Positions 55 through 17,768 of a stretch of 41,117 bases of DNA are shown one piece after another. Each line of letters begins with the position of its first letter. The first letter of the stretch is position 1. The position numbers and the translations under genes were made by a program. Source of the DNA: Candidatus Caldarchaeales archaeon (GTDB taxonomy: Archaea; Thermoproteota; Nitrososphaeria_A; Caldarchaeales; Wolframiiraptoraceae); NCBI GenBank assembly GCA_039630055.1, contig JBCNVN010000011.1, positions 1 to 41,117 on the forward strand. Direction: 5' to 3'. The notes beneath the pieces were generated by a model. It saw only the letters and a list, made by a program, of their open reading frames with translations. It made no database searches and was not told where the DNA came from.

Positions 55-378
55 GGCGGCGGTAGGTAGGGCTGGGGAGCTAGCCCTTCCCTGTAACCTG
101 AAATGGGCTACATGCAGGGGCCAGAAAACCTGGAAGAGAGTAAGAGAAGTAGAAGTACAGTGCATAAGAGATGGATGAGTATGCGTCCACGTGGAGCTCC
201 GTAAGAAGCTGTCCCATCTGTAGGGATGGGCTCCAGCTTCTGAACACGTTAAACCGTGTTAGGCCCGGGAGGGAGCAGCACTAAGACGTGGCGGAGCTGC
301 TGCGTGGTAACGTATAGGACATATTCTTATGCATCAAGGCTTCTACTCTCTTACCATCTTTCAGGGGCTGCCGCCGCC
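55..378 (+). ncRNA. ffs: Archaeal signal recognition particle (7S/SRP) RNA
   Basis: 5' GGCGGCGGTAG pairs with 3' CTGCCGCCGCC (helix 1). Alu-domain CTGTAACC motif near 91. Helix 6 CCCATCT-GTAG-GGATGGG has a GNAR loop (213-230). Helix 8 is GTGTTAGGCCC-GGGA-GGGAGCAGCAC (256-281). Length is 324 nt, with an AT-rich TATA-like sequence at ~19-31. Confidence 0.95.
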
Positions 379-17523: not shown

Positions 17524-17617
17524 TGCTCCGGCCGGGATTTGAACCCGGGTCTCGGGCTCGAGAGGCCCGCATACTTGACCTGGCTATACTCGGTGCTTTT
17601 CTAAGCTCTACCGGAGC
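17524..17617 (-). tRNA. tRNA-Glu(CUC) with a 19-nt intron (17589-17607) at position 10/11; CCA not encoded
   Basis: Acceptor GCTCCGG/CCGGAGC-A, anticodon arm CGGGC-CTCTCGA-GCCCG, T arm CCGGG-TTCAAAT-CCCGG. The D stem GTAT/GTAT is restored only after removing AGCTTAGAAAAGCACCGAG. Confidence 0.95.
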
Positions 17618-17768
17618 CTCCCATCCGGAGCAATATTAAATTGTGCATGGCTCCATGAATACTCTTCGCTGGTCTAGATGAAGCCTTTGAGAAGGCATAA
17701 ATACTACCTTTACCTATTACTAGAAATTCTCTTTTTATGGATGTAATGTTATCTGGTCTGAAAGATTC

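Follow-up and report, generated by a model that had tools for sequence, protein, structure and literature searches.

Introns that lie near the ends of tRNA genes create a folding conflict, as the bases needed by the acceptor stem are claimed by the splice motif as well, and this conflict goes unaddressed in the available parts of the literature searched. How can a precursor of this kind fold for splicing and still yield a tRNA? The question is raised by the tRNA-Glu(CUC) gene on the minus strand of the window (the whole 41,117-nt stretch of DNA analysed here), which carries an intron after its tenth nucleotide and a repeat of its own 5' acceptor strand in front of its first. The original prediction had noticed a second acceptor strand 7 nt upstream of G1 that is complementary to the tRNA 3' end, and we confirm it: GCTCCGG at 17631-17625 repeats the acceptor strand at 17617-17611, and the minus strand reads T plus GCTCCGG (17632-17625), ATGGGAG (17624-17618) and GCTCCGG TAG (17617-17608), the last of these being G1-G10. 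A spare strand encoded in the leader would, if true, be a simple solution to the conflict. The locus is laid out as follows.

17662-17668, minus strand: BRE-like purine-rich element CGAAGAG, containing alignment columns -37 to -34 (counted from the first G of the copy)
17654-17661, minus strand: TATA-like box TATTCATG, -30 to -23 from the leader copy's first G
17631, minus strand: predicted transcription start, the leader copy's first G, with a pyrimidine before it (inferred from the spacing between box and copy)
17625-17631, minus strand: GCTCCGG, the leader copy or 'decoy', which matches acceptor positions 1-7 exactly and is the complement of 66-72
17618-17624, minus strand: spacer ATGGGAG, 7 nt here, not conserved
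17608-17617, minus strand: exon 1, G1-G10, GCTCCGGTAG, of which C5-U8 (17613-17610) are the 5' strand of the splice helix H
17589-17607, minus strand: the 10/11 intron, 19 nt, AGCTTAGAAAAGCACCGAG
17607, minus strand: first base of the intron, A, the third base of bulge 1
17606-17595, minus strand: intron hairpin h', GCTT-AGAA-AAGC
17594-17591, minus strand: 3' strand of H, ACCG
17590-17589, minus strand: end of the intron, AG, the first two bases of bulge 2
17524-17588, minus strand: exon 2, U11-A73, starting TATAGCC, anticodon CUC
17531-17525, minus strand: 3' acceptor strand CCGGAGC, with A73 at 17524

The 10/11 intron and its splice motif

Joining 17608 to 17588 yields GCTCCGGTAG followed directly by TATAG, the same as in the uninterrupted tRNA-Glu(CUC) of relatives, indicating that the insert is an intron between G10 and U11. 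Exon 2 is 99% identical to the intronless tRNA-Glu genes of relatives, and removal of the 19-nt insert would restore a normal tRNA. ARAGORN and Rfam both set the 5' end at 17596, which lies inside the intron, so exon 1 is missed. For annotators, a spare strand in the leader would offer a signature of introns that standard tRNA finders overlook, as these two did in mis-setting this 5' end.

The assembly comprises 1.54 Mb at 39% G+C with many tRNA introns, and tRNA-Glu(CUC) has a single match in it (the assembly is 91.9% complete). A full-length archaeal SRP RNA at positions 60-373 (plus strand, 150.8 bits) identifies the window as archaeal. DNA runs labelled hot springs metagenome contain the stretch (shares of 0.91 and 0.68), and RNA runs contain small shares of it; RNA contigs from four metatranscriptomes span 17524-17590 only, continuing as the intronless or spliced form of other organisms.

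In the bulge-helix-bulge motif, as described in the available text of a preprint, the central helix has 4 bp and joins the four exon bases before the 5' bulge to the intron bases before the 3' bulge (10.64898/2026.10.13.758758). With a cut after G10, the exon bases of the central helix are C5-U8. The minimum-energy fold pairs C5-U8 with ACCG (17594-17591), followed by the bulge A9-G10-A and the hairpin GCTT/AAGC. The intron is probably a protein-spliced, bulge-helix-bulge intron of the HBh' type, a non-canonical form that Marck and Grosjean reportedly described for archaeal tRNA genes in 2003.

This anatomy is conserved among the 22 distinct intron-bearing genes compared here. The 3' strand of H is GCCG in 20 of the 22 and ACCG in the other 2. 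The first three pairs of h' are standard in 22, 21 and 21 of the 22 genes with changes on both sides, and the hairpin covaries (pair 2 is C-G in 16 and G-C in 5; pair 3 is C-G in 13, A-T in 4 and T-A in 3). On the 5' side, the bulge A9 G10 A fits exactly; on the 3' side, A-N-U11 sits inside a 1x5 internal loop, and the outer helix beside the 3' bulge is poor, with 3-4 displaced pairs. The genome encodes two EndA paralogues, on C21 and C5 (PF01974 matches one open frame of 185 aa and another of 151 aa), and a complete RNase P RNA (174 bits, C56:33356-33652). Since the central helix needs C5-U8, the splice-competent fold and the native 7-bp acceptor stem are mutually exclusive.

The leader copy and its link to the intron

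To compare genes with and without the intron, tRNA-Glu genes were collected with search patterns that excluded the copy, and after removal of duplicates, the distinct genes that had the intron and 40 nt or more of sequence upstream were retained, giving the set of 22. They came from 61 relatives (6 of 30 loci contributed), from all 76 genomes of the class available (8 of 76 contributed), from metagenome contigs (24 loci, of which 19 were informative, 3 were chance matches and 2 ended at a contig edge upstream) and from a loose pattern scan of genome contigs, in which L043 and L083 were archaeal among the mostly chance bacterial matches listed. A 401-genome sample of the phylum gave 7 matches, every one within this class.

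The link between copy and intron is strict. An exact GCTCCGG lies no more than 40 nt upstream in 22 of 22 distinct tRNA-Glu genes with the 10/11 intron, compared to 0 of 25 distinct intronless tRNA-Glu genes, whose best match is 4-5 of 7 positions; relatives with the same intron thus do have the duplicate, as the original prediction would have it. The spacers between copy and G1 are unrelated in sequence and 1-18 nt long (3-18 nt in the 22 genes, 1 nt in L083). A copy that is invariant while its spacers differ in both sequence and length points to selection; the copy is no chance occurrence and is selected along with the intron. The proposed 8-bp advantage of the copy over the real stem, from pairing of T17632 with A73, is not conserved: 12 of the 22 genes have T directly ahead of the copy, 8 have C and 2 have G. 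This base probably lies just before the transcription start.

Within the window, TGCTCCGG occurs three times (0.49 expected), two of these being the leader copy and the complement of the tRNA 3' end, and a count of 3 was reached in 1 of 100 shuffles. Across the genome, tRNA-Glu(CUC) is the sole gene without a D-arm directly after the acceptor strand and the sole tRNA with a doubled 5' strand (1 of 45 pattern matches, 2 of the 45 being spurious); no further doubled 5' strand was found among these matches. The tRNA-Glu(UUC) gene of the same genome has the same acceptor strand, an intron elsewhere and one copy only. Among the archaeal loci, 52 distinct tRNAs included 21 doubled strands, and all 21 belonged to this tRNA-Glu. 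The acceptor strand is GCTCCGG in every Glu example, even with the metagenome pattern that left positions 1-7 free, so there is no covariation within tRNA-Glu. Many of the Glu examples share descent, and 9 of 16 lineage representatives share one promoter type.

A separate tRNA provides a comparison. In the Bathyarchaeia MAG that contains L083, tRNA-Lys(UUU) has a 9/10 intron whose central helix falls on C4-G7, and a near copy of GGGCCCG stands directly before its G1. GGG(C/T)C(T/A) adjoins G1 of the acceptor strand GGGCCCG in 5 of 5 Lys(UUU) genes of relatives with the 9/10 intron, versus a near copy in 0 of 11 Lys(UUU) genes without it. Five of the six differences between the Lys leader copies and the true strand are C-to-T changes, which keep a wobble pair with the 3' strand. 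The Lys case is an independent parallel with its own acceptor sequence.

The same MAG also has a tRNA-Asp gene (L204/L210, minus strand) with GCCTTGG 9 nt upstream of its acceptor strand GCCCTGG. This near copy would pair fully with the 3' strand, and the gene has no 5'-proximal intron. We set it aside as a further case because such a match is within chance expectation (an estimated ~1-2 over the genes scanned); it may be a relic.

The copy could instead be neutral, a relic of how the intron arose, be it through local duplication or through a mobile element that integrated. A single event could indeed be the ancestor of all Glu examples, and the copy stands where G1 usually stands relative to the promoter, as insertion downstream of the original 5' strand would leave it. 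A precedent is the tRNA-Thr of Caldiarchaeum, where, according to the portion of the report available, integration of a mobile element left a 5' tRNA fragment upstream, and this too is a partial 5' copy ahead of an intron-bearing copy of the same gene (PMC3293823). That fragment is separated from the gene by 1.8 kb that include a recombinase gene, and it is interpreted as a by-product (PMC3293823), whereas the Glu copy has a length of 7 nt, stands at a distance of 1-18 nt, falls within the predicted transcript and is conserved. Here, the spacer is 7 nt with no mobile-element gene between copy and gene, and the copy has stayed 7/7 in 22 of 22 genes while spacers and upstream DNA diverged. Its fate in intronless orthologues also argues against neutrality: L164, with intron and copy, occupies the same locus as the intronless L012 and L013 (flanks 89-91% identical over >1 kb), and where the copy would be these two have GCCCCAGG and GACCATGG, beside a promoter that has hardly changed. 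L012 and L013 carry a decayed copy. Together with the tRNA-Lys parallel, which has a different sequence, this makes a relic quite improbable.

Promoter spacing and predicted folding of the precursor

Whether the copy could act in the RNA depends on where transcription begins. We aligned 16 lineage representatives either at the copy's first G or at G1, and found that the BRE/TATA-like signal was sharp in the first alignment and smeared in the second. Counted from the copy's G, columns -37 to -34 are C in 11 of 15, G in 10 of 15, A in 14 of 15 and A in 12 of 15; T occupies -30 in 15 of 16, A/T occupies -28 and -27 in 16 of 16, and A at -25 and T at -24 each occur in 13 of 16. A pyrimidine precedes the copy in 14 of 16 representatives. 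Nine of the 16 representatives belong to the one promoter type and are not independent; in the remaining seven, the boxes differ but the spacing does not. In this genome's 42 other tRNA genes, an AT-rich box lies at -31 to -25 from G1, so the copy occupies the usual place of the mature 5' end relative to the promoter box.

In archaeal promoters, the distance from the centre of the TATA box to the start is ~26 nt. Given this rule and the fixed distance between box and copy, the start is expected at or within a few bases of 17631, and we predict it at or next to that position. Promoter geometry puts the predicted start at the copy or immediately ahead of it rather than downstream. The two promoter guesses in the original prediction, at 17640 and 17701, do not fit, as the conserved box lies at 17668-17654.

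Two observations concern leaders more generally. The box at -31 to -25 from G1 in most tRNA genes implies very short or absent 5' leaders, despite the full RNase P RNA in the genome. In addition, a conserved motif of one family, CGAA(A/G)(A/G)GTATTCAT, lies upstream of tRNA-Glu(CUC) in both intron-bearing and intronless genes (window 17654-17668, minus strand, and loci L002, L003, L009, L019, L023, L024, L026-L030, L154, L166, L176 and L180). In the intronless genes with this motif, hand counts place G1 at +40 to +51 from it, so their leaders are unusually long; these leaders often start with GC and may be decayed copies.

The fixed distance to the TATA-like box would also fit a copy that is a promoter-proximal or initiator DNA element with no role in the RNA. 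We find this scarcely credible, as the copy is absent from intronless genes with the same promoter motif and equals the tRNA's own acceptor strand in two tRNA species.

To model the precursor, 22 transcripts were folded from the copy onward at 37 C and 65 C, with controls in which the copy was removed or shuffled. With the copy, mean probabilities were 0.99 for the helix between the copy and the 3' strand, 0.01 for the native stem and 0.23 for H at 37 C (0.37 at 65 C). Removal of the copy put the native stem at 0.92-0.99 and H at 0.01-0.04 (about 0.02); with a shuffled copy, the native stem was 0.60 and H was 0.09. In about half of the genes, H stayed <0.1 at 37 C; a GCTC/GAGC hairpin competes there and often prevails. 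The order of copy, true strand, intron partner and 3' strand would give two nested helices, and pairing the other way would create a pseudoknot. The CCGG palindrome could also join the two copies in a hairpin, but spacers of 1-3 nt leave too little room for a loop, and this was rejected as an explanation for the genes in general. Of the idea that the leader copy captures the 3' strand and so frees the true strand, the capture stands as a folding prediction, and the topology requires C5-U8 for the motif; the freed strand is predicted to form H only in part.

The folded models do not predict the later step of that idea, re-formation of the cloverleaf once the intron is spliced out. In the RNA spliced in silico, energies of -4.4 kcal/mol at 37 C and -3.0 kcal/mol at 65 C remained in favour of the copy, the native stem had a probability of 0.01-0.03, and secondary-structure energies predicted no return to it. 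Since nearest-neighbour secondary structure keeps favouring the copy, a return switch would need tertiary folding, modification or capture by RNase P.

The same energies invite a reading in which the mature tRNA has the upstream copy as its real 5' acceptor strand, and the second copy is an extra loop at 7/8, or is removed in some other way, and serves only as a splice guide. The copy does stand at the G1 position relative to the promoter, and folding favours it even after splicing. However, U8-A9-G10 follow only the second copy, and the second copy is always perfect, whereas the Lys leader copies are imperfect. The reading also requires an insertion of 8-25 nt at the 7/8 corner, and we know of none in working tRNAs. 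As RNase P RNA is present as well, we regard this reading as very improbable.

The best-supported reading, which we consider reasonably probable from the conserved sequence and the folding models, is a strand swap in which the spare acceptor strand holds the 3' end and thereby enables the splice motif. The transcript would begin with the second copy of the acceptor 5' strand, and this copy would pair with the 3' acceptor strand (66-72). Two nested helices would result, the outer one between copy and 3' strand and the inner one between the true 5' strand and the intron, leaving the true 5' strand available for the splice motif. A precursor folded in this way would have no 5' overhang, so RNase P would find nothing to cut before intron removal. 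After cleavage and ligation, the true strand would displace the copy, and RNase P would act last, removing copy and spacer. If this is true, the order of processing would be set by RNA structure alone.

A functional copy tied to the intron could also have a role other than enabling the splice motif. It could form a leaderless acceptor-like helix on the T arm that protects the 3' end or allows 3' trimming and CCA addition, or it could block RNase P and aminoacylation until splicing is done. The predicted start at the copy, which would make a helix without overhang, is consistent with such roles, as are the high probability of the copy:3' helix (0.99) next to just 0.23-0.37 for H and the persistence of that helix after splicing. 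Still, they leave unexplained why the copy is confined to introns that draw the acceptor strand into their central helix, and they overlap with the strand swap rather than exclude it. We therefore hold a purely different role to be fairly unlikely.

Comparison with known systems and possible wider occurrence

In the accessible parts of the sources on HBh' introns, such introns share several features with this one: a short intron, a 4-bp exon-intron helix, h', and two EndA paralogues; the 3-nt bulges with the cut sites may be shared as well (PMC4090602, PMC4033280, 10.64898/2026.10.13.758758). They differ in that a leader element replacing the stem strand consumed by the motif is not described in those parts (PMC4090602, PMC4033280, 10.64898/2026.10.13.758758); the word 'leader' does not occur in the main text of the preprint, as available (10.64898/2026.10.13.758758). 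More broadly, no description of a leader copy of the acceptor strand was found in the available portions of the literature searched, whose supplement tables could list 10/11 introns.

For tRNA genes that are split or permuted (in Nanoarchaeum equitans, Thermofilum pendens and Cyanidioschyzon merolae), the portions available describe pairing between leader and trailer (PMC4090602, PMC3218864). As here, a flank outside the tRNA acts as a structural helper for processing by the splicing endonuclease, yet in those genes it is the flanks themselves that pair and make up the motif for splicing, and the endonuclease cuts them away (PMC4090602, PMC3218864). The Glu leader instead copies a mature strand and, in the folding models, would pair with 66-72 outside the motif and require removal by RNase P. 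Its motif is built from exon 1 and the intron, and folding places the copy on mature positions 66-72.

A more distant resemblance is to attenuators and the expression platforms of riboswitches, which use mutually exclusive helices and an extra complementary segment that decides which of them forms. The tRNA-Glu leader has neither a ligand nor a ribosome sensor; its trigger would be removal of the intron, and its output would be an order of processing rather than transcription or translation.

The tRNA-Glu and tRNA-Lys genes may belong to a general class of archaeal pre-tRNAs with a 'stand-in strand' in cis, found with introns that consume the acceptor strand. In this class, the transcript would start exactly with the spare strand wherever the central helix of a 5'-proximal intron uses the acceptor strand, and a leaderless pseudo-acceptor stem would occupy the 3' end, permit the motif and force splicing before RNase P. 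We offer this generalization tentatively and put its chances somewhat short of even. If true, the presence of a copy would predict hidden 5'-proximal introns and explain their persistence.

Three tRNA-Glu genes with intron and copy are unusual in other respects. In L177, the gene stops after the anticodon stem and AT-rich sequence follows, which could reflect an integration site or an assembly join, and in L181 the T-loop holds an extra insert. The gene in L083 (minus strand, ~4037 of the reverse complement) combines a copy 1 nt upstream and the 10/11 intron with additional inserts in the D-loop and anticodon arm, and its 3' acceptor region is interrupted, with GGAAACGA pairing with TCGTTTCC around AGC.
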